Of a stretch of 40,000 nt of DNA, positions 1,035 through 35,852 are shown piece by piece. Positions within the stretch are counted from its first letter, which is position 1; each line of letters opens with the position of its first letter. Below the pieces are notes generated by a model. The model did not search any database, was not told the DNA's origin, and saw nothing but the letters and a program-made list of their open reading frames with translations. A program made the position numbers and the translations under genes. Where the stretch lies: the NCBI RefSeq assembly GCF_032113415.1, contig NZ_CP134946.1, forward strand, positions 1,614,333 to 1,654,332, given 5' to 3'. This DNA is from Halobellus marinus. Lineage in GTDB: Archaea > Halobacteriota > Halobacteria > Halobacteriales > Haloferacaceae.

Positions 1035-1206
1035 ATCCGAACCATCACCCGTGCGACTCTTAAGAATCACGTTTCGGTCCGCGCCCGTACTGCGGCCGAT
1101 CCGGCGGCTTTCGGGCCGAAATACCTCGGCTGGGGCTATGGACGGCGCTACGGTCGCGACGAAGATTTATCACGAACGAACAAGATGCATATAGTGGTGT
1201 GTTCCC

Positions 1207-1644
1207 ATGGCACAGACGATGCTCCTCGTGAGCTTCCTCCTCGGGATCGGTCTCGTGGTGGGGCTCGTCGTCCTGCTCACGCGCGGGCGATACCATCACT
1301 CGGCTGATCTTGCAGGATCCGGAAATCTCGCGCAGCGCCTCGGGCGGGCGACGCGCAAGCCGGCGGTATGGGCCGCCACGTTCGTGCTCCTGACCCTCCT
1401 GGCCGGTGGTGCGACCGTCCTCGCGGTCGGCGGGTACGGCGTCTCTACGGACGTCTCCGCCGGAGCGACTACCCTGCTCGCCACACTCGGGACGGTCCTC
1501 GTGGTCGGGTACGTCTTCTACGGGACGTTCGTCGCCGCGCGCGCCAGGGGACTGCACGCGGCGCAGGCTGCCGCGTTCGGGTCGTGGGCGCTCGGACTGT
1601 TGGTGCTTGTCGCCGTCGCCGCGAGCCTGCTCGGGTTCGCCTGA
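1207..1644 (+). CDS. small integral membrane protein (~4 TM), function unknown
   Basis: 145-aa ATG ORF with four hydrophobic segments (e.g. 'LLVSFLLGIGLVVGLVVLL', 'WALGLLVLVAVAASLLGF'). Its stop lies 3 nt before the next ATG, suggesting an operon. Confidence 0.6.
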   Translation: MAQTMLLVSFLLGIGLVVGLVVLLTRGRYHHSADLAGSGNLAQRLGRATRKPAVWAATFVLLTLLAGGATVLAVGGYGVSTDVSAGATTLLATLGTVLVVGYVFYGTFVAARARGLHAAQAAAFGSWALGLLVLVAVAASLLGFA

Positions 1645-1647
1645 CCG

Positions 1648-3039
1648 ATGGTCGGCGCCCGGGAGCTCCGCCGACCGCTGTCGACTGCTATCGCCGGTGT
1701 GCTCGCGACCGCGCTGCTCGCTGATCCGGCCGTCGCACACGCCGGATCTTTCGGCACCACTCGGACCGCCCCCATCCCGTCTTGGCTGGTTATCGGGACC
1801 GGCGTGGGCGTGGTCGGGGCGTCGTTCCTGTTCACGAGCCTGCTGACCGACCGGACGCTCGTCGAAGCGGTCCCGCGGCGGGCCCGGTCGTCACAAGCGG
1901 TCCGGTGGCTGGCACCGATCGCCCCACCCGCTCGGACGCTCCTCAGATGGGCGGCGGTGGGTGTCGTGGTCGTCGCCGTCGCGGTCGGCATCGTCGGTCC
2001 CGAATCCCCGCGGGCGAACCTGCTCACGCTCGGGGTCTGGATCGTGTGGTGGGCCGGGTATACGGCGACAACGTATCTCGTCGGAAACAGCTGGCCGGCG
2101 GTGAACCCCTGGCGAACGGTCGCGTCAGTCATCCCGAGCGAACGGCGGTCGCTCCCCGACAGCGTCGGGGTGTGGCCGAGCGTCGTTGGCCTCCTCGCGC
2201 TCGTCACTGCGGAGGTGTCGAGCCCGCTGGCGGCCGACTCCCGACTCCTCGCGCTCGCCGTGGGCTGTTACTCTGCGGTCACAGTCGGTGGTGCGGTCGT
2301 CTTCGGCGACGCGTGGTTCGAGCGCGTCGATCCGGTGGCGCGGACGTTCCGCTGCTACGGGCTGCTTGCGCCGGTTCGCCGGTCTGGAACCGGCCTTGAT
2401 CTCGCTCTCCCGGGGACGGGGCTGATCCGCGAGTCGACCGTCTACGACCGCGGCGAGGTCGCGTTCGTGATCGCGCTCGTGTGGGCGACGACGTTCGACG
2501 GGCTCGTCTCGACGGCCGCCTGGGGACGAGTGGCGACGGCCGCGGCGGGCGTCGGCGTTCCCCGGGTGGTGCTCACGCTCCTTGCGCTCGGTGGCGGGTT
2601 CGGCTGCTTCGCGGGGCTCTACTGGCTCGCCGCCCGCGCTGTCAGACGAACTGCGCCGACGTACGTCACGACGCGGTACCTCGCGGGGTGGTTCGCCACG
2701 GCGCTGATCCCGATCGCGGCCGGCTACCACCTCGCGCACTTCGCCGGCTATCTCCTCTCTTTCGCGCCGACGGTGCTTTCGGTCGCCGCGGCGCCGCTTG
2801 CGCCGCCGGCAGCCCTCACCGTGCTGTCGCTGCCGCCCTGGTTCGGCGCGGTGCAGATCATCGCCGTCGTCGTGGGTCACGTCGTCGCCGTCTGGGTCGC
2901 TCACGCCCGCGCGTTCGCGTTGTTCGCGGGCCGGGTCCAGCCGGTCAGGAGCCAGTACCCATTCGCAGCTGTAGCCGTCTGCTATACGGCGACGAGCCTC
3001 TGGATCGTCGCACAGCCGACCGCGGCCGGACTCGCGTAG
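1648..3039 (+). CDS. polytopic integral membrane protein (>=10 TM), function unknown
   Basis: 463-aa ORF with an N-terminal signal-like segment '...LATALLADPAVAHAGS' and many hydrophobic helices. His-containing helices 'AAGYHLAHFAGYLL' and 'VVGHVVAVWVAHARAF'. Tightly packed with its flanking genes. Confidence 0.65.
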   Translation: MVGARELRRPLSTAIAGVLATALLADPAVAHAGSFGTTRTAPIPSWLVIGTGVGVVGASFLFTSLLTDRTLVEAVPRRARSSQAVRWLAPIAPPARTLLRWAAVGVVVVAVAVGIVGPESPRANLLTLGVWIVWWAGYTATTYLVGNSWPAVNPWRTVASVIPSERRSLPDSVGVWPSVVGLLALVTAEVSSPLAADSRLLALAVGCYSAVTVGGAVVFGDAWFERVDPVARTFRCYGLLAPVRRSGTGLDLALPGTGLIRESTVYDRGEVAFVIALVWATTFDGLVSTAAWGRVATAAAGVGVPRVVLTLLALGGGFGCFAGLYWLAARAVRRTAPTYVTTRYLAGWFATALIPIAAGYHLAHFAGYLLSFAPTVLSVAAAPLAPPAALTVLSLPPWFGAVQIIAVVVGHVVAVWVAHARAFALFAGRVQPVRSQYPFAAVAVCYTATSLWIVAQPTAAGLA

Positions 3040-3040
3040 T

Positions 3041-3337
3041 ATGTCCCGAACGCCACCTCCCGAGACCGCGCTGCCGGACGACGAATCGGTGGGCGACGAA
3101 GCGGCGGTCGCACGCTGCCCGTACTGTGACCGGCCGTTCGTCACCGACCGCCAGCGCGCCATCCACGTGGGGGAGCGACACGACCCGGCCGCGGCCGAAC
3201 AGCAGGCCTACGAGCGCGCCCGGCGCGAAGAGAGCGACGAACTGTTCCGCCTGCACCTGCGGGTAGTCGTCGCGATCGGCCTGCTGTACGCCGCGTTCGT
3301 CGTTGCCGGGGTCGTGGCGTTCAGCCTCCCGGGCTGA
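3041..3337 (+). CDS. C2H2-type zinc-finger protein with C-terminal transmembrane anchor
   Basis: 98-aa ORF starting 1 nt after the upstream TAG. 'CPYCDRPFVTDRQRAIHVGERH' fits C-x2-C-x12-H-x4-H. The C-terminal 'VVVAIGLLYAAFVVAGVVAF' is hydrophobic. Confidence 0.65.
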   Translation: MSRTPPPETALPDDESVGDEAAVARCPYCDRPFVTDRQRAIHVGERHDPAAAEQQAYERARREESDELFRLHLRVVVAIGLLYAAFVVAGVVAFSLPG

Positions 3338-3342
3338 ACGAT

Positions 3343-3361
3343 CGGCGGCTTGTCGCCGCCG
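3343..3361. terminator. GC-rich hairpin between convergent genes (possible bidirectional terminator)
   Basis: 'CGGCGGC-TTGTC-GCCGCCG', a 7-bp stem with a 5-nt loop, lies between the + stop at 3337 and the - stop at 3372. The terminator function is inferred only. Confidence 0.3.
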
Positions 3362-3371
3362 CGGTGCGGAC

Positions 3372-3575
3372 TCAGACTCCGTGTTCCTCGCCGCCCTCGG
3401 GTTCGGGGGCGCGGGCGACGACGGCGGTGAGTACGCCGACGCCGCCGACGACGACGGCCCCGAAGACGGCGACGATCGCCGTCCCGAGGCCCATCGCCTC
3501 CGCTGTGAGCAGTGCCGCCAGCCCGCCCACGACGAGCGCGACGGCGACCGCGAGCGCGAGAGTCGTTCCGTTCAT
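3372..3575 (-). CDS. small membrane protein (2 TM), function unknown
   Basis: Part of ORF 3372..3665. Start taken at the internal ATG 3573-3575 (MNGTTLALAVAVALVVGG...). Almost all codons end in G/C. The region upstream of this ATG is basic and not protein-like. Confidence 0.5.
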   Translation of the reverse strand: MNGTTLALAVAVALVVGGLAALLTAEAMGLGTAIVAVFGAVVVGGVGVLTAVVARAPEPEGGEEHGV

Positions 3576-3740
3576 CGTCGCCGGATTGGTGCTCGGCCGT
3601 GGTAAATGTTGACGTTTAACTGACCCCGACTGCTGCCGGTGACGTTCCTGGAGCCTCCTTATCATCCGTCACTCACCGTCTCGGCGACTACCGCACACCA
3701 TCCTGAGGACCCGCCACTTCCGGTTCCAGTGAACTGTCGC

Positions 3741-3968
3741 TCACGTCTCCGTCGAACCGCCCACGCCGATGGCGACGACGAGGACGAACACCGCAGCCGC
3801 GAGCACGATGCTCGGCGCGAAGACGATCGGGTCCACGGGTCGGGAGCCGGTCACCTGGAGCAGCATCACCGCGACGCCGACGCAGACGGGGAGCGAGAAG
3901 ACGAGCGCGTACCCGAGGACGACCCGTCTGCGCGAGTCCTCGGAGTCGGTGCGATCGGCGTCGGTCAC
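3741..3968 (-). CDS. small membrane protein (2 TM) translationally coupled to the cox subunit-IV-like gene
   Basis: C-terminal 75 codons of track ORF 3741..4232. A GTG start overlaps the upstream TGA stop (GTGA). 'VVLGYALVFSLPVCVGVAVMLL' and 'IVFAPSIVLAAAVFVLVVAIGV' are hydrophobic. GC3 is very high. Confidence 0.5.
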   Translation of the reverse strand: MTDADRTDSEDSRRRVVLGYALVFSLPVCVGVAVMLLQVTGSRPVDPIVFAPSIVLAAAVFVLVVAIGVGGSTET

Positions 3969-4225
3969 AGGATCGAGTACGACGCCGCGAGGGTCAGTGC
4001 CAGTGCCGCCGCGAGCCCTATGAGGACGACGTACGTCAAAGAGCGGGGCTCGTACCGGAGATGCTGGAAGTACGCCGCCACGAGCACGGCCTTGAACGCC
4101 GAGAGCGCGACGATGATTCCGAACGCCGTCCAGTAGGCCAGTCCCGCGAACTCGACGAGCACCTGGATCGTCGCCGAGACGAATAGGACCGCGAACACCG
4201 CCGTGTACAGTTTCGTGTTTGTCAT
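3965..4225 (-). CDS. cytochrome oxidase subunit IV-like small membrane protein (prokaryotic CoxD/CyoD-like)
   Basis: 86 aa with 3 TM; 'FKAVLVAAYFQHLRYE' resembles the oxidase subunit IV family. A strong Shine-Dalgarno-like 'GAGGTGA' lies between the coxA stop (4234) and this ATG. Confidence 0.7.
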   Translation of the reverse strand: MTNTKLYTAVFAVLFVSATIQVLVEFAGLAYWTAFGIIVALSAFKAVLVAAYFQHLRYEPRSLTYVVLIGLAAALALTLAASYSIL

Positions 4226-4233
4226 AGGTCACC

Positions 4234-6942
4234 TCACAGGATGTAGAACAGCGGGAAGAGGAACAGCCAGACGATGTCCACGAAGTGCCAGTAGAGCCCG
4301 AAGTACTCGACCGGCCGGTGGTCCGTCAGGTAGGACCCGCCGATCGCGCGTCCGAGGAGATACAGCGTCCCGATTAGCCCCGCGATCACGTGCGCGGCGT
4401 GCAGCCCGGTCGTCAGGAAGAACGTCGAGGTCCGGACCGTCGCGGTCGGATCGACTCCCTCGTGGAACAGGTGCTGCCACTCCAGGGCCTTGTTGCCGAG
4501 GAACCCGACGCCCAGGACGAACGTCACCGTCAGGCTCGCGATCAGCCCGCCCCGGTGGCGCTTCTGAGCGGCGACCAGCGCCAGGATGACGGTGAAACTG
4601 CTCGCGAGCAGGATGTACGTGTTCACGAGTCCCGGGATCGGGTCGGCTGGGACCGGCTCCCATCCGGTCCACCCGGCCGCGACGCGGGTGAAGACGTACG
4701 CGCCGATGAAGCCGCCGAAGAGGACGACGTCGGAGGCGAGGAAGATCCACATCCCGACCTTTCCGTTTTCGATCCCGTCGAACGGCCAGGCCTCCCCGAA
4801 GCCGCCCTCGGGGGCCTCGAAGGGCTCGATCGCCCAAGCGACGAGCGATCCGAGAACGATCACGCCCCCGGCGAGGGCGGCGAAGGCGTAGGCCGTGCCG
4901 GCCATCCCCTCGACGAGCGATCCCTCGCGGACGCCCGAGAGGCCCAGGAAAAGCAGGAACGCCCCGACGCTGACCGCGAGGGGCCAGACGCTGGTGTGGT
5001 CGCCGTGGGCGTGGTCACTCGCGTGAGCCTCCGCTGTGGCCCCGCCATCTGCTCGCGGCGACGCGGCCGTGTCGCCGTCGGCCGTCCCCGTACTCCCGCC
5101 GTCGGCGGCATCACGCCGGAACGAGAGCTGTCCGCCGCTGTAGGACGGCACGCCCGGGAAGTTCCCCGCGGGGGGCGGTGAGGGGACTGCCCACTCGGCG
5201 GTGCGGGAGAACTCCCAGGGTTTGTTGCCGACGCGCTCGCCGTCGAAGGCGCTCTTCGTCAGGTTGTACACCATCAGGATGAACGACAGCCCGAGGATGA
5301 ACGCGCCGACGGTGGCGAGTTTGTGCCAGGGAGCCATCCACGCGTCGTACTGGAAGACGCGCCGCGGGGTCTCCCAGGCGACGAACATCGGGAAGTAAAG
5401 CAGGTTGAAGCCCACGAAGTACGCGACGAAGTGCGCCTTCCCCAGGAACTCGTCGTACATCCGCCCGGTGATCTTCGGGAACCAGTAGTAGAGGCCCCCG
5501 ATGAGCGCGGTGACGCCGCCGACCATCACGTAATGGAAGTGGGCGACGACCCAGTAGGTCCCGCGGAACTCGTAATCGAGGACAATCGCGCCCAGGAAGA
5601 CACCCGTGATCCCCCCGAGGATGAAGAGCAACAGGCCGCCGAAGGAGAACAGAAACGGCGTCGTAAACCGGATGCGTCCCTTCACGAGCGTGTAGATCAG
5701 CGAGAACACCATCAGGTCGAAGGGCAGGGAGATTCCGATCGTGGTCACCATAAACAGCGTCTTGATCTGGAGGTTGATCCCGGTCAGGAACATATGGTGC
5801 ATCCAGACGACGAAGCTCTGGAGCGCGACGAGCACCATCGCCGCGATGAACCACTTCCGGCCGACGATCCGGCGGCCGGTGAACGTCTGGAACACCTCGG
5901 CCATCACTCCCAGCGCGGGGAAGAAGACGATGTACACCTCGGGATGGCCGAAGAACCAGAACAGGTGCGTCCACAGGAGCGATCCCCCGGCCGTCTCCTG
6001 GACGAAGTAGGCGGTGCCCAGGATCCGGTCCGACGAGAGGATGAGCAGCGCGGCCAAAAGCGCCGCGAAGGCGAAAAGCATCATCCAGACGGTGAGCAGG
6101 ATCGACCACGTGAAGATCGGGAGCCGTCTGAGCGTCAGTCCCTCCGCACGCATCCGGTGCATCGTCGTCAGGAAGTTCACCGACGAGACGGTGACCGAGG
6201 CGACGAAGAGAACGAGCGCGAGGATGGCGGTGTTTGCGCCCACGTCCGGGGTGAACGTCGGGAGGTTCAGCGGAGCGTACATCGTCCACCCGCCGGCGAA
6301 GGTCCCACCCTGGAAGAAGGAGGCGACAAACAGGAGCCCGGAGGCGAGGTACAGCCAGAAGCTCAGGGCGTTCAGCCGCGGAAACGCGAGGTCGTCGGCG
6401 CCCATCTGCAAGGGGACGACGTAGTTCGCGAAGCCGAACGCGAACGGCGAGAGGAACCAAAACACCATTATCAGCCCGTGTGCCGAGACCGCCTGATTGT
6501 ACGCCATCGCGCTGAGGACCCCCTCACCGACCGCACGGGGCTCCCACATCTGGATCCGCATCAGCCACGCGAGCAGCCCGCCCAGAAACAGGAAGAAAAC
6601 CGAGGTGACGATATAGAGGATGCCGACGTCCTTGTGGTTCGTCGTCGTCAGCCAGTAGCGGACGCTCTCCCGGGAGGGGTAAGAGCCCTCTGTGACGGCT
6701 CCCGGGACGGGCTCTTCTCCCGTCAATCCCTCCGGGGAGACTGTTCCGCCGTCGGGGGTTCCCTCGGACCTTCCAGTGGCCGTTCCGGCGTCGGCTTTCG
6801 CCTCATCGGCCCCTCCAACGGCTGTTCCACCGTCGGGTTTCGCCCCGTTGGAGCCCTCGTCGTTCGTCGCCCCGTCGGCGGCCGCCGTCTCGCCGTCGGG
6901 CGCTCCAGTGCCAGTCCCGTCTTCTTTGTCTCTGTCCGTCAT
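4234..6942 (-). CDS. coxA: cox-type terminal oxidase, fused subunit I + subunit III
   Basis: 902 aa. Subunit I hallmarks: 'WLTTTNHKDVGILYI', 'WFFGHPEVYIVFFPALG', 'VVAHFHYVM'. C-terminal subunit III hallmarks: 'FFLTTGLHAAHVIAGL', 'GLYWHFVDIVWLFLFPLFY'. Low-complexity N-terminal extension and I/III linker. Confidence 0.95.
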   Translation of the reverse strand: MTDRDKEDGTGTGAPDGETAAADGATNDEGSNGAKPDGGTAVGGADEAKADAGTATGRSEGTPDGGTVSPEGLTGEEPVPGAVTEGSYPSRESVRYWLTTTNHKDVGILYIVTSVFFLFLGGLLAWLMRIQMWEPRAVGEGVLSAMAYNQAVSAHGLIMVFWFLSPFAFGFANYVVPLQMGADDLAFPRLNALSFWLYLASGLLFVASFFQGGTFAGGWTMYAPLNLPTFTPDVGANTAILALVLFVASVTVSSVNFLTTMHRMRAEGLTLRRLPIFTWSILLTVWMMLFAFAALLAALLILSSDRILGTAYFVQETAGGSLLWTHLFWFFGHPEVYIVFFPALGVMAEVFQTFTGRRIVGRKWFIAAMVLVALQSFVVWMHHMFLTGINLQIKTLFMVTTIGISLPFDLMVFSLIYTLVKGRIRFTTPFLFSFGGLLLFILGGITGVFLGAIVLDYEFRGTYWVVAHFHYVMVGGVTALIGGLYYWFPKITGRMYDEFLGKAHFVAYFVGFNLLYFPMFVAWETPRRVFQYDAWMAPWHKLATVGAFILGLSFILMVYNLTKSAFDGERVGNKPWEFSRTAEWAVPSPPPAGNFPGVPSYSGGQLSFRRDAADGGSTGTADGDTAASPRADGGATAEAHASDHAHGDHTSVWPLAVSVGAFLLFLGLSGVREGSLVEGMAGTAYAFAALAGGVIVLGSLVAWAIEPFEAPEGGFGEAWPFDGIENGKVGMWIFLASDVVLFGGFIGAYVFTRVAAGWTGWEPVPADPIPGLVNTYILLASSFTVILALVAAQKRHRGGLIASLTVTFVLGVGFLGNKALEWQHLFHEGVDPTATVRTSTFFLTTGLHAAHVIAGLIGTLYLLGRAIGGSYLTDHRPVEYFGLYWHFVDIVWLFLFPLFYIL

Positions 6943-7637
6943 GAGCCGGATGTTGTCGTGTTAGCGTACCACTCGTCGTACTCGTCGGGTTCCATCACGA
7001 CGACAGTCGCCGTCATATACGAGTGGCCGCTACCGCAGAGTTCGTAACACTGTGCCGTGTAGTTCCCCGTCTCCTCGGCCTCGAACCAGGTTGTCGTGGT
7101 CTGACCGGGGACGGCGTCGCTTTTCACGCGTAACTCCGGCACACCGAAGTTGTGGAAGACGTCACTCGACGTAACGCGGAGCCGGATCACCTCGTCACGC
7201 GGGACCCGGAGAACGCCGTCGGTCTGGTGGCCGTTCGGGTAGGTGAACTCCCATCCGAACCGGTAGCCGTCGACCTCGACTTCCATCTCCGGCGACGGCG
7301 GGTCTTCCACGTAGAGCAGCGTTCCGTAGGTCCAGGCGACAAGCGAGACGACGATGACGGTGCTGAGCGCGAAGGAGGTGAACAGCTTCCGACCGCCGCC
7401 GCTTCCGCCGGGAAGCTCTCCGAGTTGGGGAGGGTCGAAGTCGTGGTCGTGCGATGCCCCCTCTCGGTACTTGTAGGCGTTGTAGACCATATACGCGACG
7501 ACCACGACGCCGACGAGCGTTCCGAGGAGGAGAAACACCTCGAAGATGCGGCCGAAGACGGCCGTTCGCGTCCCCCGGGGGATCAGCCCCGCCTGTGCGA
7601 TCCAGCCCGCGACCGCCCCGGCGACGTGTGTGTACAT
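6939..7637 (-). CDS. coxB: cox-type terminal oxidase subunit II (CuA subunit)
   Basis: CuA motif 'CYELCGSGHSYM' plus 'FHNFGVPELRVK'. ATGA overlap with the coxA start. The track start (7673) is a TTG. I prefer the ATG at 7635-7637 (MYTHVAG...), which lies ~22 nt downstream of an 'AAATATT' box. Confidence 0.9.
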   Translation of the reverse strand: MYTHVAGAVAGWIAQAGLIPRGTRTAVFGRIFEVFLLLGTLVGVVVVAYMVYNAYKYREGASHDHDFDPPQLGELPGGSGGGRKLFTSFALSTVIVVSLVAWTYGTLLYVEDPPSPEMEVEVDGYRFGWEFTYPNGHQTDGVLRVPRDEVIRLRVTSSDVFHNFGVPELRVKSDAVPGQTTTTWFEAEETGNYTAQCYELCGSGHSYMTATVVVMEPDEYDEWYANTTTSGS

Positions 7638-7756
7638 CGATACCACACCACTCGCAATATTTGTCTTGAACAATACTTATAGATTGTGTGGGTAGACCCC
7701 GGGCGAAGCGACGCCCGGGCCGGGAACCCCACACGACTCTCGCCGCGTGGACGGTG

Positions 7757-8272
7757 TCAGACGTCGTGCTGTGGAATCCCGGTCGTTCTCGTCAGAACGT
7801 AGCCCAGCGTGAGTCCGTAGACCCAGTGCCCTGCCAGGGAAAACACGAGGAACGCGGCCCCCGTCGCCAACCCCGCCCCGGGCCAGAACGCGGGGACAAA
7901 CCCGGTCCAGAACATCGTCGCGAACGCCACGCCACGGAGATACCGCGGCGACTCCGGGGGGAGAAACGCCCCAACGACGAGGAACGTCAGCGGGAGCAAG
8001 ATTGTTCCGCCGAGGGCGAACAGGACGAGGCCGAGGGTGACGGTCGGTTCGATCCCGAAGAACTCCGCGAACCCGGCGAAGTTCGTTACCGGTTCGGTCC
8101 TGAAGAGGCCCAGAAAGCTGGGAACGCCAACGATAACGGGCAGCATCGCTACCGTCCCGAGGAGGCCGCCACCCATCGCGGCGAACACGACGCGGCCGGT
8201 GATCGGTATCTCGAAGGAATCGACCAGTTCCTCATCAACCGTCGTCGTTGGTTCCGACGTTTCGCCGCTCAT
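7757..8272 (-). CDS. integral membrane protein (~4 TM), function unknown
   Basis: C-terminal 171 codons of track ORF 7757..8902, starting at ATG 8270-8272 (MSGETSEPTTT...). An AT-rich TATA-like 'TTTATCATTAT' lies upstream. The upstream part of the long ORF is antisense to the CYTH gene. Confidence 0.6.
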   Translation of the reverse strand: MSGETSEPTTTVDEELVDSFEIPITGRVVFAAMGGGLLGTVAMLPVIVGVPSFLGLFRTEPVTNFAGFAEFFGIEPTVTLGLVLFALGGTILLPLTFLVVGAFLPPESPRYLRGVAFATMFWTGFVPAFWPGAGLATGAAFLVFSLAGHWVYGLTLGYVLTRTTGIPQHDV

Positions 8273-8356
8273 TGTTCTGTGATACCGTTTCGCAATCCAT
8301 AATGATAAATGGTAATGGTTTTTCGCGGTGTCGACCGGCCGGAGCCTTCCGAGGGT

Positions 8357-8432
8357 CACTCCGCAGATGGGACGGTTTTTCCCCGGGCGGATGGGCCGCT
8401 TGCCACTCCGCAGATGGGACGGTTTTTCCCCG
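8357..8432. repeat. two perfect 29-bp direct repeats (period 47 bp) in a divergent promoter region
   Basis: 'CACTCCGCAGATGGGACGGTTTTTCCCCG' occurs at 8357-8385 and 8404-8432. A degenerate third 'GGTTTTTCGCGG' lies near 8320. Confidence 0.9.
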
Positions 8433-8452
8433 CGCGGACGGACTGTCGGCGT

Positions 8453-9158: not shown

Positions 9159-10364
9159 ATGACTGAGCGGAACATTACGATCGAGGCTGCAGACCGGGAC
9201 GCCGTCGAGGATCAGGCGGTGGAGATCGTCGAGCGGAAGGGCATCGGCCATCCGGACTCGATCTGCGACGGGATCGCAGAGCACGTCTCGCGGGCGCTCT
9301 CACAGCTCTATCTCGACCGCGTCGGCCGCGTCCTCCACTACAACACCGACGAAACTCAGCTGGTCGCCGGCGAGTCGGCGCCCCGCTTCGGCGGCGGTGA
9401 GGTCGTCGAACCGATCTACGTCCTGATCGTCGGCCGCGCGACGAAGAGTTACGACGGGCAGCGGCTTCCGATCGACGCGACTGCTCTCTCGGCCGCCCGC
9501 GAATATCTCAACGAGCACGTCCCCGAACTGGATGTTGGAACCGACATCGTCGTCGACACCCGCATCGGCGAGGGCTCCGGCGATCTCCAGGACGTCTTCA
9601 GCGAGGACAGCGCGGAGGTCCCGATGTCGAACGACACATCCTACGGCGTGGGTCACGCGCCGCTGACCGAAACCGAGGAGATCGTCCGGACCGTCGAGAC
9701 CGAACTCAACGGGCCCTACGCGGCCGACAACCCGGAACTCGGCCCCGACGTGAAGGTGATGGGCAAGCGCGAGGGTGAAAAGATCGACATCACGGTCGCG
9801 GCAGCGATGGTCGACACCCACATCGCGGATCTGGATGCGTACGACGACGCCGTCGAGCGCGTCCGCTCACACGTCGGCGACGTCGCCCGGGGGCTCACCG
9901 ACCGCGAGGTCCACGTCGACGTCAACACCGCCGACGACTACGACGAGGGATCGATCTACCTCACGGTGACCGGCACCAGCGCGGAGATGGGCGACGACGG
10001 CTCCGTCGGCCGCGGCAACCGCGCCAACGGACTCATCACGCCAAACCGGCCGATGAGTATGGAGGCGACCTCGGGGAAGAACCCCGTCAACCACATCGGG
10101 AAGATCTACAACCTGCTTTCGACCGACATCGCCGAGGCCGTCGTCGCGGAGGTCGACGGCATCCGCGACCTGCAGGTCCGACTCCTCTCACAGATCGGTC
10201 GTCCCATCGACGAGCCGCACGTTGCCGACGCGAAGGTCGTCACGGAACCGGGCGTCGACCTGGCGGCGATCGAACCGGAGATCCACGCGATCATCGACGA
10301 CCGGCTGGCCAACGTCACCGACGTTACGCGCCGCGTGATCGACGGCGACCTTTCGACGTTCTGA
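9159..10364 (+). CDS. metK: archaeal-type S-adenosylmethionine synthetase
   Basis: 401 aa. '[18 protein letters not shown]' and the overall sequence are typical of archaeal MAT. A TATA-like 'TTATAG' lies ~30 nt upstream of the ATG. Confidence 0.95.
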
Positions 10365-10446
10365 TACTGTCTGTCGTCGTCTCTCCGCAGTGCTCGCCGC
10401 TACCGGAGGGAGCGAGCACCCGAAAAAGGTACAACAGTCAGTATGA
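10362..10446 (+). repeat. 79-bp structured inverted-repeat element, copy C (TGA-flanked)
   Basis: TGA(10362-64)-[TACTGTCTGTCGT...GTGCTCG-CCGCTACCGG-AGGGAG-CGAGCAC...GAAAAAGG...ACAACAGTCAGTA]-TGA(10444-46). The 5' TGA is the metK stop codon. Same 79-bp core length and fold as copies A and B. Confidence 0.8.
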
Positions 10447-11669: not shown

Positions 11670-11794
11670 CTCTCAGTCGGGATCGTTCAGAGACCTCTCG
11701 ATCAGGCGCGTCTGACCGCCGTCCGATCCGGACCGCACAGACGTCTCTCAGTCAGGCGCGTCCGACCGTCACCTGATCTGAGCCGTGTGAACGT
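11670..11794. repeat. imperfect tandem repeat (two ~50-bp units plus a 25-bp partial) carrying a dyad-symmetric word
   Basis: Units start at 11695 and 11745 ('CTCTCGATCAGGCGCGTCTGACCG...' versus 'CTCTCAGTCAGGCGCGTCCGACCG...'). A partial unit starts at 11670. The dyad 'TCAGGCGCGTCTGA' is at 11702-11715. Confidence 0.7.
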
Positions 11795-11835
11795 GTACCG
11801 ACTGACGTTGTGTGTCTGTTCACCTTCCCTCGCGA

Positions 11836-11849
11836 GATCGTTAACGATC
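11836..11849. promoter_or_regulatory. perfect 14-bp palindrome upstream of a small Zn-protein gene (candidate operator)
   Basis: 'GATCGTTAACGATC' is its own reverse complement and lies ~67 nt upstream of ATG 11916. The regulatory role is inferred. Confidence 0.35.
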
Positions 11850-11915
11850 GATACTATCTGTGTGAAAGACCGGGTTGAAATGGATTTAGGTACTTCCAGG
11901 CCCTACGTTTGTTTG

Positions 11916-12185
11916 ATGTCAAAGACGTGCCGTCCCTCCCCGTCGACCGTCGACGCGGAGTGGACCGTGAGGCAAGTGGTCCCGCGCTCCGACTGGGACG
12001 CCGCTGTCGAGCCGTGCCCCACCTGCGGCGACGATGTCGACCGCCGCGAGTCGCACTATCAGGTCGAACTCGATCGCAAGCGGACGCCCGGACAGGAGAT
12101 GAAACTGACGCGGGAGCGGCGACTGCTCTCCTTCTGCGATGAGGCCTGTGCGACAGCGTGGCTCGACAGTGCCGCGAGCCCCTGA
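11916..12185 (+). CDS. small zinc-binding protein (CxxC ... FCxxxC, TRASH/zinc-ribbon-like)
   Basis: Internal ATG of track ORF 11787..12185, giving 89 aa (MSKTCRPSP...). Motifs 'CPTCGDDV' and 'SFCDEACATAW'. A TATA-like 'ATTTAGG' lies ~30 nt upstream. Confidence 0.55.
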   Translation: MSKTCRPSPSTVDAEWTVRQVVPRSDWDAAVEPCPTCGDDVDRRESHYQVELDRKRTPGQEMKLTRERRLLSFCDEACATAWLDSAASP

Positions 12186-12267
12186 TACTGATTACTCTCA
12201 CTTGTTACCGTCGAGCACCGCCAGCGGGGATGCGCTCGGCGGGAAAAGACGAGAGTAATCAGTATGA
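12183..12267 (+). repeat. 79-bp structured inverted-repeat element, copy A (TGA-flanked)
   Basis: TGA(12183-85)-[TACTGATTACTCTC AC TTGTTA CCGTCGAGC A CCGCCAGCGG GGATGC GCTCGGCGG GAAAAGAC GAGAGTAATCAGTA]-TGA(12265-67). The outer stem is 14-15 bp and perfect. The 5' TGA is the stop of the upstream gene. Confidence 0.85.
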
Positions 12268-13361: not shown

Positions 13362-13811
13362 ATGTCGGACGACACAGACGACCCCGCCGAGGGGAACGAT
13401 GCCGAGGAAACGCCGGACGCCGAGAAAGCGTCGGACGCCGAGTCCGAAGCCGAGGAGAAATCCTTCCGCGAACGCGTCGAGGAGATCCGCGAACGGCGCG
13501 AGGAGGAACGCGAAGAAGGCGACCGCCCCGACCCCGAGGAGATGATGGGCGGCGGTGGCGGCGGCAACCCCTTCGCACAGATGATGAGCGGAATGATGGG
13601 CGGCGGTGGCGGCCCGCCGGGGATGGGCGGCGGTGGCGGCCCGCCGGGAATGGGCGGCGGTGGCGGCCCGCCGGGGCGAAGCGGCCAGGAGGAAAGCGGC
13701 GCTGACAACGAGGAACTCGTTCGCGAGGTCCGACAGCTCCGTGACGAGGTCCGCGACGCGACGCGACAGCTCCAGCGGATCGCGCAAGCGGTCGAGGACC
13801 TCGACGACTAA
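13362..13811 (+). CDS. acidic protein with central Gly/Met/Pro-rich repeats and C-terminal coiled coil, function unknown
   Basis: Internal ATG of ORF 13335..13811 (MSDDTDDPAEG...). Central 'MMGGGGGGNPFAQMMSGMMGGGGGPPGMGGGGGPPGMGGGGGPPG'. C-terminal 'LVREVRQLRDEVRDATRQLQRIAQAVEDL'. Confidence 0.65.
   Translation: MSDDTDDPAEGNDAEETPDAEKASDAESEAEEKSFRERVEEIRERREEEREEGDRPDPEEMMGGGGGGNPFAQMMSGMMGGGGGPPGMGGGGGPPGMGGGGGPPGRSGQEESGADNEELVREVRQLRDEVRDATRQLQRIAQAVEDLDD
13596..13676 (+). repeat. near-perfect 27-bp tandem repeat x3 inside a CDS (encodes MGGGGGPPG x3)
   Basis: 'ATGGGCGGCGGTGGCGGCCCGCCGGGG' occurs at 13596, 13623 and 13650. The units differ at one nucleotide only. Confidence 0.9.
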
Positions 13812-17708: not shown

Positions 17709-17957
17709 ATGGACGAAGAGGAGTTGCGGAAGCAGGCCCACGACCTGGACGTTACCGTCTGGGTGGGCAAGGGGGGAATCGATCCGGTCGTCGAGGAGGC
17801 GTCCGATCAACTCGCCGACCGCGACCTGATCAAGGTGAAGTTCCTCCGGGCGGCCCGCGGGGGGACGACCGTCGAGGAACTGGCCGACGAACTGGCCGAT
17901 CGCACCGACGCAAGCGTGATCGAGACACGGGGTAACACGGGGGTTCTCTACCGATGA
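17709..17957 (+). CDS. YhbY-like RNA-binding protein (CRM/CRS1-YhbY domain)
   Basis: 82 aa. 'VWVGKGGI' and 'LIKVKF' are characteristic of YhbY. A 'CTTAAGTTT' box lies ~30 nt upstream. Confidence 0.85.
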   Translation: MDEEELRKQAHDLDVTVWVGKGGIDPVVEEASDQLADRDLIKVKFLRAARGGTTVEELADELADRTDASVIETRGNTGVLYR

Positions 17958-18868
17958 TCGGGGGCGCAACTCTGCAGGTCGGCACCGGCCTGAGCGGATC
18001 GATCGCCCGCATCCTCACCAGTATCGGGATCCCCGACACGATCGCCGGGTTGCTCGGCCAGGTGCTGGCGTTCCTCGTCGTCTTCATCGTCGTGTACGTG
18101 GTCGGCCGGAGCGTACTGATCCCGGTCGTGAATCGGATGATGAACTCCCGGGGACTGGAGGCGCACGCCCGGCGACCCCTCCGGCGGATCCTCCTTGTCG
18201 TCGTCGTCTTCGTCGGGATCACCGCTGCCTTCGGCGCGGCGGGCTTTCCCGACTTCCTGCGCTCTTTGGCGACGATCGCCGCCGCTGCGACGCTGGCAAT
18301 CGGCTTTGCGATGCAGGACGTCCTGCAGAACTTCGTCGCGGGCATCTTCATCTACACCGACAAGCCGTTCAAGATCGGCGACTGGATCCAGTGGGACGGC
18401 AACTCGGGCGTCGTCGAGGACATCAGCTTCCGCGTCACGCGCGTCCGGACCTTCGACAACGAACTGCTGACAGTCCCGAACTCACAGCTCACCGACGGCG
18501 TGATCAAGAACCCGGTCGCGAAGGACAAACTCCGCCTGCAGGTCCCCTTCGGGATCGGCTACGACGACGACACCGAGAAGGCCACGGAGATCATCGTCGA
18601 GGAGGCAGAGGCCCACGAAGAGATCTTGGAGGATCCCGCGCCGACGGTGCGGCTTACCGAACTGGGCGACTCGTCGGTGACGCTCACCTCGCGCGTCTGG
18701 ATTGCGGACCCCAACCGGTCTGACTTCGTGAAGACGCGCGCGGAGTACGTCCAAAACGTCAAACAGCGGTTCGACGAGGAGGGGATCGACATCCCGTACC
18801 CCAACCGGACGCTCGGGGGGGAACTCACCGTCGCTGGGTTCGAGGAGATTTCGCCCGACGACGACTGA
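17954..18868 (+). CDS. mechanosensitive ion channel, MscS family
   Basis: 304 aa with 3 N-terminal TM, then 'IGFAMQDVLQNFVAGIFIYTDKPFKIGDWIQ...GVVEDISFRVTRVRTFDNELLTVPNSQL'. ATGA overlap with the yhbY-like stop. Confidence 0.9.
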   Translation: MIGGATLQVGTGLSGSIARILTSIGIPDTIAGLLGQVLAFLVVFIVVYVVGRSVLIPVVNRMMNSRGLEAHARRPLRRILLVVVVFVGITAAFGAAGFPDFLRSLATIAAAATLAIGFAMQDVLQNFVAGIFIYTDKPFKIGDWIQWDGNSGVVEDISFRVTRVRTFDNELLTVPNSQLTDGVIKNPVAKDKLRLQVPFGIGYDDDTEKATEIIVEEAEAHEEILEDPAPTVRLTELGDSSVTLTSRVWIADPNRSDFVKTRAEYVQNVKQRFDEEGIDIPYPNRTLGGELTVAGFEEISPDDD

Positions 18869-18907
18869 TACTGACTGTCGCGAGACGGGCCGTACTCTCC
18901 GGGCGGC
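18866..18907 (+). repeat. possible truncated copy (D) of the 79-bp element: 5' arm only
   Basis: 'TGATACTGACTGTCG' starts at the mscS-family stop codon (TGA-TAC-TGA). It is the exact complement partner of copy C's 3' arm 'ACAGTCAGTA'. No 3' arm is present, and the remainder fills the 39-nt gap to the convergent stop at 18908. Confidence 0.35.
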
Positions 18908-31651: not shown

Positions 31652-31690
31652 CTCCGTGGGGTCGGCACGGATCGCAGGGGGCCGAACCCG

Positions 31691-31727
31691 CCGGAGGTTT
31701 ATATACGAGTACGCGGCCAGCCGCGGT
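31691..31727 (+). promoter_or_regulatory. promoter/leaderless-start module P2
   Basis: 'CCGGAGGTTTATATACGAGTACGCGGCCAGCCGCGGT' directly precedes ATG 31728. The first 13 nt and the CGCGGCCA box are identical to P1 at identical spacing. Confidence 0.7.
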
Positions 31728-33950: not shown

Positions 33951-35704
33951 CTGGATCGCACGCCCGCATCCACAGGCTCGCACGCGGGCTGGCGAAGTGG
34001 TATCCGAGATCAGTCGAGCCGACGACGGAGCTTCGCCGCTCGCTTTCCTTTCTCGAAAGCGACCTCCGAGCGGAGACTGTCGTCCGCGCGGGCTACGTAG
34101 CCGCCCTCCCGAGCGCGCTACTGGTTATCTGCGCCCTGTCGGTCGCCGTCCCCTCGCTTCCGCTCGCGGCCACGCTCCCGGCAGCCGCCGGAATCGGCCT
34201 CGGGACGACGCACGCCCTGCACCGACTTCCGGTCGCGGCTGCGACACTCCGGCGGACCCGGGCGCTCGGTGACGCCCCCGGACTCGTCGCCCGCGCTGCG
34301 CTCCGGCTCAGACTCGATGCGACCCCCGAGCGCGCAGCGATATTCGCCGCCAGGACCGGCGACGGCCCGCTTGCCCGCAGCCTCGCAGCGCACGCGGATC
34401 GAACTCGCCTCGGCCCGGCAGCCGGGTTCGAGGCCTTCGCCGACGAGTGGCAGCCGTGGTTCCCCGCGCTCGAACGCTCGGTTTCGCTGCTTTCTGCCGC
34501 CGTCGAGGCGCCGACCGGCGAGCGGGAGAGCGCACTCGATCGCGCACTGGAGACGATCCTCGACGGCGCCCGGAGCGAGATGGCCGACTTCGCCGGCAAC
34601 GTCCGCGGACCGGCGAGTGGGATCTATGCGTTCGGGGTTCTCCTGCCCCTCGCGCTCGTCGGCGTGTTGCCCGCGGCCCGTGCCGCTGGCGTGGTCGTCC
34701 CTGCGACAGTGTTCATCGTACTCTACGACGTCGTCCTGCCGGTCGCACTCGTGGTTGCTGGCGTGTGGCTCCTCCTGCGCCGTCCGATTGCCGTGCCCCC
34801 GCCGCGGGTGACGAGGGCGCATCCCGACGTTCCATCGGGAGTGGCGCGCGGCATCGGCGCCGGGATCTGTGGGCTCGGCGTCGGGGCCATAGCTGGCTCG
34901 CTGGTCGCGACTTGGGCCACGCCGGTCGCCGCTGCGGGCCTTGGGACTGGCGCCGCGCTCGCGGTTCATTACCGTCCGATGCGGGCGGTACGTCGGGAAG
35001 TCCGGGAGATCGAATCCGGACTCGCTGACTCGACGGCGGTGGTCGGTCGCCGCGTGGGCGCCGGAGAATCAGTCGAGACGGCCATCGGAGCAGCCGCCGA
35101 GGCCACGACGGGACGGACTGCGGAACTCTTCGAATCCGCGGCTGGCGTCCAGCGTCGGCTGCGTGTCCCCATCTCCCGGGCGTTCCTCGGCGATCACGGC
35201 GCGCTCAGCGAGGTACCGAGCCCCAGGGCCCGTGCGACCGCCGAACTCTTTTCTGTCGCTGCCAGGGAGGGCCGTCCGTCCGGGCCGACACTCGTTACGC
35301 TGGCGGATCACCTGACAGAGCTCCGGCGAGTCCAGGCCGATGCACGCCGGGAGCTTGCGGCGATTACTGGTACACTCGCCCATACGGCGGCGCTGTTCGG
35401 GCCGCTCGTCGGCGGTGCGACCGTCGCGATGGCGACTCAGATGGCCGCGACGGAACCGACAGCCGTCGAGAGCGCCTCGCTGGGTGGCACTGCTGCACCG
35501 GGAGCCGCAACGCTCGCGCCGTCGACGCTCGGGATTGCCGTCGGCGTCTACGTGCTCGCGCTCGCGGTGATCCTCACCGCGGTGGCGACGGGCCTCGATC
35601 GCGGTCTCGATCGCTCGCTCGTCGGGTATCGCATCGGGCTGGCGATGTGTTCGGCGACGGCGGCGTATCTCGTGGCTTTCCTGGGTGCGTCGATGCTGTT
35701 CTGA
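33947..35704 (+). CDS. polytopic platform protein, T2SSF-like (PilC/TadB-C/FlaJ family)
   Basis: 585 aa with ATGA overlap to the ATPase stop. Two helical-domain + TM modules. The second fits the T2SSF pattern: 'GLADSTAVVGRRVGAGESVETAIGAAA...LVTLADHLTELRRVQADARRELAAITGTLAHTAALFGPL'. Confidence 0.75.
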   Translation: MTGSHARIHRLARGLAKWYPRSVEPTTELRRSLSFLESDLRAETVVRAGYVAALPSALLVICALSVAVPSLPLAATLPAAAGIGLGTTHALHRLPVAAATLRRTRALGDAPGLVARAALRLRLDATPERAAIFAARTGDGPLARSLAAHADRTRLGPAAGFEAFADEWQPWFPALERSVSLLSAAVEAPTGERESALDRALETILDGARSEMADFAGNVRGPASGIYAFGVLLPLALVGVLPAARAAGVVVPATVFIVLYDVVLPVALVVAGVWLLLRRPIAVPPPRVTRAHPDVPSGVARGIGAGICGLGVGAIAGSLVATWATPVAAAGLGTGAALAVHYRPMRAVRREVREIESGLADSTAVVGRRVGAGESVETAIGAAAEATTGRTAELFESAAGVQRRLRVPISRAFLGDHGALSEVPSPRARATAELFSVAAREGRPSGPTLVTLADHLTELRRVQADARRELAAITGTLAHTAALFGPLVGGATVAMATQMAATEPTAVESASLGGTAAPGAATLAPSTLGIAVGVYVLALAVILTAVATGLDRGLDRSLVGYRIGLAMCSATAAYLVAFLGASMLF

Positions 35705-35786
35705 TACTGATTACTCTCATCTCTGACCGCCGAGCGCCGCCAACGGGGATGGAGCTCGGCGGGGAAAAGTGAGAGTAATAGTATGA
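35702..35786 (+). repeat. 79-bp structured inverted-repeat element, copy B (TGA-flanked)
   Basis: TGA(35702-04)-[TACTGATTACTCTCA...CCGCCGAGC G CCGCCAACGG GGATGGA GCTCGGCGG GGAAAAG TGAGAGTAAT-AGTA]-TGA(35784-86). ~85% identical to copy A. The 5' TGA is the platform-gene stop. Confidence 0.85.
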
Positions 35787-35815
35787 CTGAGCTCTCACTC
35801 CGGCGCCAGTATCGT

Positions 35816-35852
35816 CCGAGCGTTTATATACGGGGACGCGGCCAACCGCCCT
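35816..35852 (+). promoter_or_regulatory. promoter/leaderless-start module P3
   Basis: 'CCGAGCGTTTATATACGGGGACGCGGCCAACCGCCCT' directly precedes ATG 35853. Same TATA and CGCGGCCA spacing as P1 and P2. Confidence 0.7.

Follow-up and report, generated by a model that had tools for sequence, protein, structure and literature searches.

What occupies the ends of several genes in the 40,000-nt stretch of Halobellus marinus DNA analysed here (the window), where the same 79-bp hairpin begins directly behind the stop codon? It could be a selected 3′-UTR structure or a mobile element, and in the second case its position on stop codons calls for an explanation. An earlier note on this DNA had described three full copies (A, B and C) flanked by TGA on both sides, the 5′ TGA being the stop codon of the upstream gene. 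The coordinates and the core length were confirmed, and the ORF ends matched the proximal TGA at all three copies and at a remnant, D, as follows:

10362-10364, plus strand: proximal TGA of copy C, stop codon of the AdoMet synthase gene 9159-10364
10365-10443, plus strand: core of copy C, 79 bp, second subfamily (C-type), outer stem beginning with TACTGTCTGTCGTC, inner stem GTGCTCG/CGAGCAC
10444-10446, plus strand: distal TGA of copy C, followed by AGC as after the single TGA in empty-site relatives
12183-12185, plus strand: proximal TGA of copy A, stop codon of ORF 11787-12185, a small protein with a weak DUF7576 match
12186-12264, minus strand: core of copy A, 79 bp, A-type subfamily, with asymmetric arms read on the minus strand and the 14-bp terminal inverted repeat TACTGATTACTCTC / GAGAGTAATCAGTA
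12265-12267, plus strand: distal TGA of copy A, the target duplication
18866-18880, plus strand: remnant D, consisting of the stop TGA that closes the MscS gene 17954-18868 and, behind it, 12 nt from a C-type arm, TACTGACTGTCG
35702-35704, plus strand: proximal TGA of copy B, stop codon of the T2SSF-like gene 33947-35704
35705-35783, plus strand: core of copy B, 79 bp, A-type, arms on the plus strand, with 1 nt deleted from the 3′ inverted repeat
35784-35786, plus strand: distal TGA of copy B, about 40 nt upstream of a promoter-like box, TTTATATA, of gene 35853-36332
36330-36332, plus strand: vacant target TGA, the stop of gene 35853-36332

With its filters switched off, a covariance model returned exactly these three full copies within the 40 kb, and TGATACTG occurred four times in the window versus 0.20 times expected. 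All copies had been assigned to the plus strand, but copy A proved to be inverted relative to B and C, because its asymmetric internal loops score better on the minus strand (76.9 bits versus 62.1 on the plus strand); B and C scored higher on the plus strand (82 versus 52.1 and 66.9 versus 39.4 bits, respectively). The TGA-TAC-TGA pointed out before in A, B and D was read correctly, and represents the duplicated target followed by the first bases of the element, TACTGA; at 18866 remnant D reads TGATACTGACTGTCG, with the remaining element deleted.

The element is 79-81 bp long in 96 of 99 copies, too short for a transposase gene, and consists almost entirely of one long imperfect palindrome, laid out as a 14-bp terminal inverted repeat (TACTGATTACTCTC; degenerate form TACTG(A/G)NNNCTCTC), an asymmetric internal loop, a 12-bp inner inverted repeat (CCGCCGAGCGCC) and a 12-nt centre. 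The terminal inverted repeats begin at the very first base, with each terminal position 88-100% conserved among 78 copies, and the outer helix is 93.9% paired across the subfamilies. Predicted hairpin energies were −44.5 and −45.7 kcal/mol for copies A and B (z about −7), and very stable hairpins were predicted for both strands (−42 to −46 kcal/mol, z −7 to −9). The pyrimidine-rich internal loop previously placed opposite a conserved GAAAAG is present in B and C, while the GAAAAGAC of copy A is the complement of that loop and not the counterpart of GAAAAG. Copy C differs from the A-type in its outer and inner stems, with termini, internal loops and apical loops identical.

Stem covariation, also claimed previously, held between A/B and C, where both sides change in 18 of 26 pairs, a value reached by none of 500 shuffles. 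It failed within the A-type family, in which 98 resident copies carried 210 pair-breaking single changes and only 16 compensatory doubles, versus 17.4 in shuffles. Stems thus covary only between subfamilies, and resident copies decay without compensatory change. In addition, the 12-nt centre occurs in both orientations inside otherwise identical arms (flip/flop, 64:23). Orthologous copies diverge no more slowly than the DNA around them: window copy A had accumulated three derived changes in 79 nt, set against an overall identity of 98.4%.

At each of four sites compared, one or more relatives had a lone TGA where the occupied genome has TGA-element-TGA (TGA-remnant at D), in agreement with the suspected 3-bp TGA duplication. 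At the metK end, the window and H. ordinarius read TTC TGA, 79 bp, then TGA AGC/TGC, while H. litoreus and H. salinisoli read TTC TGA AGC with no element, and H. rubicundus and an H. clavatus-like contig have a single TGA and no element either. These four other species are likewise empty at the MscS site and at the small-protein site, where the orthologues of ORF 11787-12185 end in a single terminal TGA. Orthologous copies were located in H. ordinarius for copy C (L076, 6079-6158) and for copy A (L076, 7850-7929, and JGI contig L213), and at the MscS stop, where the window retains only remnant D, this TGA is occupied in H. ordinarius by a complete A-type element. Copy B is lineage-specific, its site being unoccupied in H. 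limi and in H. ordinarius, whose T2SSF gene is 97% identical. Conversely, a Halobellus metagenome-assembled genome (L072) has the element, flanked by TGA on both sides, exactly at the counterpart of the vacant stop 36330-36332. Taken together, these occupied and empty sites point to a mobile element rather than a conserved RNA. Separately, one copy was seen to coincide with a synteny break between two close species.

Two other descriptions of the insertion were discarded. The 2-bp TA duplication offered earlier as an alternative (IS630/Tc1-like) is ruled out by the empty sites, which lack TA at the insertion point; an integron attC-like cassette-end site is rejected as well, the insertion being 82 bp only with no cassette, and the element ends are unlike attC core sites.

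The target was then defined on 99 unique full-length copies from Halobellus genomes. Perfect repeats flanked 78 of them, TGA/TGA in 41 and TCA/TCA in 37; the imperfect ones were mostly one mismatch away, and neither TAA nor TAG repeats occurred. The preferred target was C-TGA-G, with C before the repeat in 78% of copies and G after it in 62%, compared with a background of 46% and 32% at stop codons. Copies located off stop codons shared this bias (C 85%, G 62%). The arms were oriented at random relative to the TGA strand (38:40).

The prediction of a large genomic family was borne out: at least 80 full-length near-identical copies, the majority immediately after a stop codon, were found in the sampled part of H. 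ordinarius, about 12 on the 398-kb plasmid of H. limi and two in 21.7 kb of its chromosome. Overall, 112 copies with unique flanks were collected at unrelated loci, with presence/absence differences between relatives. Among the matches listed by a pattern scan, 62 of 79 loci belonged to H. ordinarius, and the others to H. clavatus, H. rarus, two haloarchaeal metagenome-assembled genomes and three chance bacterial matches; named isolates with the family, among these matches, were found here only in the haloarchaeal genus Halobellus. A metagenome scan retrieved a further short family of about 75-125 bp, on contigs of 55-58% GC, which shares the 5′ repeat, is preceded at its 5′ end by a TGA and encodes no transposase.

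Short non-coding sequence, terminal inverted repeats reaching the tips, a direct duplication, many copies and presence/absence variation are the features of miniature inverted-repeat elements. The family therefore very likely represents non-autonomous DNA transposons (MITEs) that insert at and duplicate TGA, their anchoring to stop codons arising partly through selection. A transposase supplied in trans, most likely of the DDE type, would bind both element ends and make cuts staggered by 3 nt in the near-palindromic 5′-C-TGA-G-3′, and repair of the gaps would duplicate the TGA. This cutting and repair step is suggested by the combination of terminal repeats, 3-bp duplication, symmetric target and random orientation. 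The mover is probably a DDE transposase; since no autonomous element with these termini was encountered, we infer this assignment from the features of the insertions.

The search for a related full-length IS with the same termini, suggested in the earlier note, came back empty for about 1.2 Mb of Halobellus DNA and for a metagenome scan in which the inverted repeat had to lead into an interior unlike the MITE. When all loci were compared with one another, no multi-copy segment of ≥250 bp emerged, only segments common to pairs of loci from different genomes, which were read as orthologous. Paired TACTG...CAGTA ends lying 300-4000 bp apart with matching duplications were neighbouring MITEs only. 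Ten low-GC ORFs encoded an integrase, TnpB and unrelated proteins but no IS5-family transposase, the sequence beyond truncated copies bore no sign of an IS, and viral contigs, scanned with the 14-mer, yielded nothing beyond chance matches in low-GC phages.

The position of the copies on stop codons was then quantified. About 60% of copies lie exactly on a stop codon versus 7-14% expected, the latter being the stop share among tolerated TGA, CTGA or CTGAG sites according to a crude gene map based on GC at third codon positions, in which intergenic DNA is overcounted. The flanking TGA ended a coding-like ORF in 57 of 99 copies, versus 4% among all TGAs, and six of the 12 copies on the annotated H. 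limi plasmid coincided with annotated CDS stops. Thus, of the two preferences looked for, that for stop codons was found and that for gene orientation was not. Of the perfect-repeat copies, 29 of 77 lay off stop codons; most non-stop copies were within tens of nucleotides of a gene 3′-end, and at genes ending in TAA or TAG the element sat a few nucleotides downstream, at the next TGA.

The share of copies at stop codons rose with copy age, namely from 39% in copies with 0-2 differences from the consensus to 69% with 3-5 and 79% with 6 or more (Mann-Whitney p = 0.016; n = 77 copies, retrieved by a pattern favouring intact arms), so survival at stops contributes to the bias. When the TGA of a stop codon is the target, the proximal duplicate would preserve both reading frame and stop, while everything downstream would be shifted by 82 bp, and such insertions should be close to neutral for that reason; insertions into coding sequences or promoters would be lost. 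Once in place, the copies decay as neutral DNA does. Stop anchoring would then result in part from TGA target specificity plus purifying selection, rather than from recognition of a translation signal.

The youngest copies are already enriched at stops, however (39% versus 7-14%), so that selection alone may not explain the bias. The same MITE could instead be directed to TGA stops by its transposase or a host factor, for instance through a structural or compositional signal at the boundary of coding and non-coding DNA, in which case the bias would be made at insertion. Besides the young copies, one MscS stop codon struck by two subfamilies in two sister lineages fits such active targeting, as does the commonest context, GAC-TGA, found at 14 of 37 stop sites. 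On the other hand, the climb from 39% to 79% requires filtering after insertion, copies elsewhere occupy the same C-TGA-G context, genes with TAA or TAG stops are struck at a nearby TGA and not at the stop itself, and the expected value behind the enrichment is uncertain owing to the crude gene map. We consider targeting of gene ends as such unlikely, and retain target specificity combined with selection, to which some preference for gene ends may add.

REPINs and REP elements, which are mobilised by RAYT, are hairpins of 70-110 nt present in hundreds of copies at gene 3′-ends; they are bacterial and RAYT-associated, have a conserved GTAG-type motif and show no terminal duplication. Their hairpin size and position resemble those of the Halobellus family, and a single-strand HUH element, derived from REPIN/RAYT or IS200/IS605, might leave its site as single-stranded DNA and re-enter 3′ of a TGA, bringing a terminal TGA of its own, in which case no real duplication would have taken place. 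Such an origin would accommodate an element that is entirely one hairpin of REPIN-like size, subfamilies that conserve structure and loops rather than stem sequence, and a centre that exists in a flip as well as a flop state. These genomes also contain IS605-type TnpB genes (L067), palindrome-associated elements derived from IS605-type transposons abound in Haloquadratum (PMC3119063), and a DDE partner was not found in the sequences searched. Elements of this kind, however, insert with fixed polarity, whereas the arms here point forward in 38 cases and backward in 40 with respect to the TGA strand, and the target is symmetric around TGA, as for a dimeric double-strand enzyme. Moreover, the inverted repeats reach the element tips instead of forming subterminal hairpins with unrelated ends, and the Halobellus DNA examined showed neither a RAYT nor a TnpA gene with copies on its flanks. 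An HUH origin is accordingly quite improbable.

The other origin put forward for the family, a selected 3′-UTR RNA hairpin that serves to end transcription, to shield the 3′-end of the mRNA or to bind a protein, and whose spread would be secondary, is very improbable. It draws on the very stable hairpins of both strands, on the many copies starting at stop codons with most others near gene 3′-ends, and on stems that covary between subfamilies while loops are conserved; a symmetric hairpin would also function in either orientation. Yet four further Halobellus species lack the element at the corresponding gene ends, and even in H. ordinarius site B is empty. Random orientation means that no strand-specific RNA motif can lie in the conserved asymmetric loops; compensatory changes are not in excess among resident copies, orthologous copies diverge no more slowly than their surroundings, and more than a third of the perfect-repeat copies are off stop codons. 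An intrinsic terminator is rejected, as no hairpin plus T-run was found: a terminator scan returned 0 terminator-like sites, no U-tract followed the hairpin, and the T content at 15 positions downstream of copies was 3-24%. A known RNA family is likewise rejected, Rfam giving no match at the gathering score and, with E up to 1, nothing beyond a best E of 0.36, far below that score. A secondary effect of the hairpins on transcripts could still be exerted.

As MITEs, the Halobellus copies have close counterparts in other haloarchaea. Catalogues of Halobacterium salinarum (MITEHsal1-14, ISH2; PMC7002104) and of Haloquadratum walsbyi (HqIRS MITEs; PMC3119063) list small elements that encode nothing, end in terminal inverted repeats and duplicate their target, the duplication, where quoted, measuring 7 bp in MITEHsal2 (PMC7002104) and 8-9 bp in HqIRS39 (PMC3119063). 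As described there, these families resemble the present one, as interpreted here, in being multicopy, mobilised in trans and different between close strains, but they were assigned to known ISH classes via shared termini. The Halobellus family is set apart by its strict 3-bp TGA duplication, its length of 79-81 bp, its almost wholly palindromic sequence and the lack of a parent IS in the searches above. Also similar is HqIRS41 of H. walsbyi, with 79-80 bp, an inverted terminal repeat of 17/21, no transposase, no related transposon known, strain-specific intergenic insertions, six copies in one strain and reportedly no target duplication (PMC3119063). The two agree in size and in the missing parent IS, and only the Halobellus family has a 3-bp duplication. 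The host of HqIRS41 has about 48% GC.

Tourist/PIF-Harbinger elements duplicate 3 bp that conform to TNA. Within the IS5 family, the IS1031 group has a 3-nt insertion site (PMC2516522), and IS5 and Harbinger transposases are related (PMC12730594). The Halobellus family shares a 3-bp duplication with IS5 (IS1031 and IS427 groups) and Tourist/PIF-Harbinger; its own also conforms to TNA, but is TGA/TCA only, within C-TGA-G, and not TTA/TAA. Neither an IS5-family transposase nor a matching inverted repeat was found in the DNA examined, and membership of the Halobellus family in IS5/PIF-Harbinger is a lead only.

Correia elements of Neisseria are abundant hairpin MITEs of about 100-150 bp without a known cognate transposase, with a short sequence-specific duplication and variant internal regions, and are co-transcribed with neighbouring genes. 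They are bacterial, duplicate TA, have 26-bp repeats with promoter and IHF sites, and are not anchored to stop codons. The Halobellus family shares with them the hairpin form, the short specific duplication and the variant interior, and differs in target, repeats, host and stop anchoring. A published Halobellus MITE or a stop-codon-targeting archaeal MITE was not found in the literature searched, and the family is apparently undescribed, though otherwise an ordinary kind of element.

Plain cut-and-paste transposition does not predict two of its features, i.e. the stem complementarity kept between subfamilies with conserved loops, and the centre occurring in both orientations. A folded hairpin intermediate would explain the complementary stems and conserved loops of the diverged subfamilies as well as the flip/flop centre. 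It is rather doubtful that the family goes beyond a passive MITE in this way, combining a C-TGA-G ‘safe haven’ specificity with propagation via a folded hairpin. If the safe-haven part were true, insertion would regenerate the stop codon and hundreds of copies would be tolerable in a compact archaeal genome; if the hairpin-intermediate part were true, the responsible transposase or recombinase would represent an enzyme type so far without a link to archaeal MITEs.

For annotation, hairpins behind stop codons may be mistaken for terminators, small RNAs or conserved 3′-UTR motifs, and the A-TGA junction creates spurious start codons. For genome evolution, the copies place long palindromes at gene ends. 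The strict duplication of TGA, by which the stop codon is restored, illustrates how target choice and selection together yield a seemingly ‘functional’ position, and the age trend offers a way to separate the one from the other.

The 79-bp Halobellus repeat is a real and apparently undescribed family of MITEs (non-autonomous DNA transposons with terminal inverted repeats). The three full copies claimed in the earlier note (A, B and C), each flanked by TGA on both sides, were matched base for base in the window, and the left TGA proved each time to be the stop codon of a real-looking upstream gene. The covariance-model scan proposed in that note, run without filters on a model of 13 family members, recovered exactly these three full copies in the window, and four occurrences of TGATACTG were counted against 0.2 expected.

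Element copies and adjoining genes in the window (strand, best-scoring)
9159-10364: AdoMet synthase gene (metK, Pfam E=1.7e-174); stop is the left TGA of copy C
10365-10443, plus: copy C core, 79 bp, TGA either side
11787-12185: small-protein gene; stop is the left TGA of copy A
12186-12264, minus: copy A core, 79 bp, TGA either side
18866: remnant D, the fourth TGATACTG, after the MscS channel gene stop, then only 12 nt of arm
33947-35704: T2SSF-like pilus platform protein gene; stop is the left TGA of copy B
35705-35783, plus: copy B core, 79 bp, TGA either side

Hairpins of A and B were at about -45 kcal/mol (z about -7) on both strands. All copies had been placed on the plus strand, which holds for B and C, but A scored best on the minus strand (76.9 versus 62.1 bits) and is thus inverted relative to them; since A is inverted, the pyrimidine loop opposite GAAAAG described as common to the copies is partly an artefact of palindrome alignment. 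The element's last base, A, together with the duplicated TGA creates an ATG at each 3′ junction (35783-35785, 12264-12266 and 10443-10445), which at B opens a spurious 136-codon ORF (35783-36193) in a frame different from that of the real gene downstream (35853-36332), the latter having its own TTTATATA box.

The family extends well past these loci. Searching PLSDB with copy A by blastn gave matches on the 398-kb Halobellus limi plasmid only, at 17 places, and about 12 copies were located when this annotated plasmid was taken whole. A flank-neutral pattern scan, with one genome per species, yielded at least 79 loci; among the matches listed, 62 belonged to H. ordinarius, others to H. clavatus, H. 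rarus, a Halobellus metagenome-assembled genome and one labelled Haloquadratum sp., and three bacterial loci were evident chance matches. A profile search over these loci and other DNA gathered gave at least 116 matches, with 112 unique flanks and 99 of full length. Copy density is strongly lineage-specific, because the 21-kb syntenic loci of H. litoreus, H. salinisoli, H. rubicundus and an H. clavatus-like contig held no copies bar one decayed relic. In H. rubicundus (L091:17205-17282) this relic, ...CCGCCGAGCGTC...GTGAGAGCCAGTA, immediately follows the TGA with which the Rpr2 gene ends, the family being otherwise absent from that region.

Empty sites were compared along the conserved Halobellus synteny metK-thiI-small protein-DUF5804...MscS-HD. 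The window MetK is ∼100% identical to that of Halobellus marinus, and the window DNA is 95% identical to H. ordinarius ZY16 contigs and 98.4% to a JGI metagenome contig. At the metK stop (site C), the window, H. ordinarius and the JGI contig read ...TTC TGA (79 bp) TGA AGC/TGC..., while H. litoreus, H. salinisoli, H. rubicundus and the H. clavatus-like contig have a single TGA and no element, the junction in the first two being ...TTC TGA AGC.... The small-protein stop (site A) is occupied in the same three and empty in the same four; the MscS stop (site D) is occupied in the window (remnant) and H. ordinarius (full copy), and again empty in those four. The T2SSF stop (site B) is occupied in the window only and empty in H. 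ordinarius (T2SSF 97% identical) and H. limi, homology of the downstream sequence resuming at the base after the distal TGA. The window TGA at 36330-36332 is itself an unoccupied site: at the matching position, the Halobellus metagenome-assembled genome (L072) has TGA-element-TGA. Direct repeats flanking the full-length copies were TGA/TGA in 41 and TCA/TCA in 37 (78/99), the remainder being mostly one base off; TAA or TAG repeats occurred in none of the 99. These comparisons, proposed in the earlier note, show an insertion with a 3-bp TGA duplication, the MITE-like reading given there, and exclude its 2-bp TA alternative, since no TA stands at the empty-site junctions.

At the MscS stop, the window has a C-type arm remnant (18866-18907) and H. 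ordinarius an intact A-type copy (L064:6557-6642), A-type (copies A and B) and C-type (copy C and remnant D) being subfamilies with different stem sequences. Synteny ends exactly there, with the HD gene next in the window and unrelated sequence in H. ordinarius, which suggests a recurrent insertion hot spot or an element-mediated rearrangement. Elsewhere, window 1077-8446 (∼7.4 kb), holding COX1/COX2/COX4 cytochrome oxidase genes by synteny, is missing at the orthologous H. ordinarius position, where L076 joins 1076 to 8447 with ∼40 bp between; H. litoreus and H. salinisoli have these genes, and H. rubicundus and the H. clavatus-like contig lack them. Other ∼82-bp palindromic repeats, unrelated in sequence to the family, recur near H. 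ordinarius copies (L018:2510-2595 and the flanks of L035, L043, L048 and L070), match each other in both orientations and may be further MITE-like families. In H. ordinarius, an IS605-type TnpB gene (L067:3858-5177; OrfB_IS605 and Cas12f1-like TNB domain) that has typical hairpin ends adjoins pieces of a C-type and an A-type arm (5370, 5448), so one mobile element may have inserted into another. The window also has tandem coding repeats: three 27-bp Gly/Met/Pro-rich units (ATGGGCGGCGGTGGCGGCCCGCCGGGG) at 13596-13685 in the gene after DUF5804/PRC, a similar Gly/Met-rich repeat on the opposite strand at 100-150 in an FKBP-type gene at the left window end, and three to four 36-bp units at 32329-32463 in the long ORF 31656-33950, which precedes the T2SSF-like pilus gene.

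With copies oriented by the duplicated TGA, 78% had C just before it and 62% had G just after its distal copy. Copies off stop codons were biased alike (85% C, 62% G), and ordinary TGA stops in the same DNA had 46% C and 32% G, which rules out a codon-usage effect; the target is thus the near-palindrome C-TGA-G. The asymmetric arms ran in either direction relative to the TGA strand (38:40). Such random orientation and symmetric target fit a dimeric double-strand transposase, and argue against both strand-specific HUH-type insertion and a strand-specific RNA motif. Between the inner inverted repeats lies a 12-nt centre whose two states are inversions of each other (64:23) and independent of the arms: GCCAACGGGGGT and its complement ACCCCCGTTGGC are found between otherwise identical arms (e.g. 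L020:4657-4736 versus L021:3649-3728), and window copies A (12186-12264) and B (35705-35783) have opposite arms but, read on the plus strand, agree in the orientation of the centre. This flip/flop could stem from in-place inversion, by template switching in the hairpin, or from two co-amplifying lineages.

The earlier note had also offered a selected 3′-UTR hairpin acting as terminator, stabiliser or protein-binding RNA. Comparison of A-type, C-type and further types in L012, L054 and L063 bore out its co-varying stems on a conserved architecture: 18 of 26 pairs were changed on both sides, equalled in 0/500 shuffles, with termini (TACTG), internal loops and an apical CCCCGT/ACGGGG motif conserved. 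Within 98 A-type copies, in contrast, there were 210 pair-breaking single changes and 16 compensatory doubles versus 17.4 in shuffles, and copy A differs from the 98.4%-identical relative by three derived changes over its 79 nt, at least one weakening a stem pair. Resident copies thus speak against a selected hairpin; lacking a compensatory excess, the palindrome is a property of propagating founder copies that is not kept up in residents, as expected of a transposon and not of a functional RNA. A terminator or known RNA failed likewise, with no Rfam match and no terminator-like site found for the element, and a REPIN or IS605-derived element failed on polarity and tips.

The element has every defining MITE feature except an identified parent. 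In the Halobellus DNA examined, no repeated IS-sized segment, long-range pair of matching ends or DDE gene was found, nor did the suggested search of the DNA return a related full-length IS with the same termini. Scanning metagenomes for the repeat with a non-MITE interior behind it revealed only one other short element, in contigs of 55-58% GC (L221:6220-6303, minus strand; L222:12608-12740; L223), ∼75 bp long, or ∼125 bp in orthologous contigs. Its 5′ repeat, TACTGATTACTCTC, is identical and preceded by TGA; the 75-bp version has CAGTA at its 3′ end and then TGA, and after the 125-bp version comes TTA. This suggests that the ends are common to more than one non-autonomous family; they also appear common to other haloarchaea. 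Within the IS5 family, which is related to PIF/Harbinger (PMC12730594), the IS1031 group is characterised by a 3-nt insertion site (PMC2516522); for the Halobellus element this link is a lead, not membership.

By class, the closest match to the element is the set of haloarchaeal MITEs and small mobile repeats in the catalogues of Pfeiffer, Dyall-Smith and colleagues (PMC7002104, PMC3119063). HqIRS41 of H. walsbyi, compared by its published description, equals it in size (79-80 bp) but is reported there without a duplication. In accordance with the earlier note, which had not recognised the repeat, no Halobellus MITE or stop-codon-anchored archaeal MITE was found described in the literature searched; a 2024 review of prokaryotic MITEs names as archaeal examples only Sulfolobus, Halobacterium, Haloquadratum, Desulfurococcus and ‘several other’ genomes, stop codons being unmentioned.

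The preference for stop codons is pronounced. The flanking TGA ended a coding-like ORF (≥60 codons with high third-position GC) in 57 of 99 copies, versus 4% of all TGA triplets, and on the H. limi plasmid six of the ∼12 copies sat exactly on annotated CDS stops (lpdA, ccdA, alcohol dehydrogenase, glyA, triose-phosphate isomerase and a hypothetical gene). When the criteria were loosened a little, 62% of perfect-repeat copies (48 of 77) were on a stop. For TGA, CTGA or CTGAG sites at stops or outside predicted genes, the expected stop share was 7-14% (binomial p ∼4e-29), a lower bound because the crude gene map overcounts intergenic DNA. Many non-stop perfect-repeat copies lay no more than a few tens of nt from the end of a gene, and in genes ending in TAA or TAG the element stood at a TGA a few nt beyond the stop. 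Tabulating strand and stop distance, as had been proposed, gave enrichment at stops and no preference in arm orientation. The stop share rose with divergence from the consensus, from 39% (0-2 differences) to 69% (3-5) and 79% (6 or more; Mann-Whitney p=0.016), a signature of differential survival. The earlier note had suggested that the element targets, or only survives at, stops; 29 of the 77 lay elsewhere. Insertion into a TGA stop restores the stop and alters nothing else, so that such copies persist, and the youngest class, at 39%, still allows for some extra insertion bias. Target specificity for TGA and selection together account for most of the stop-codon position.
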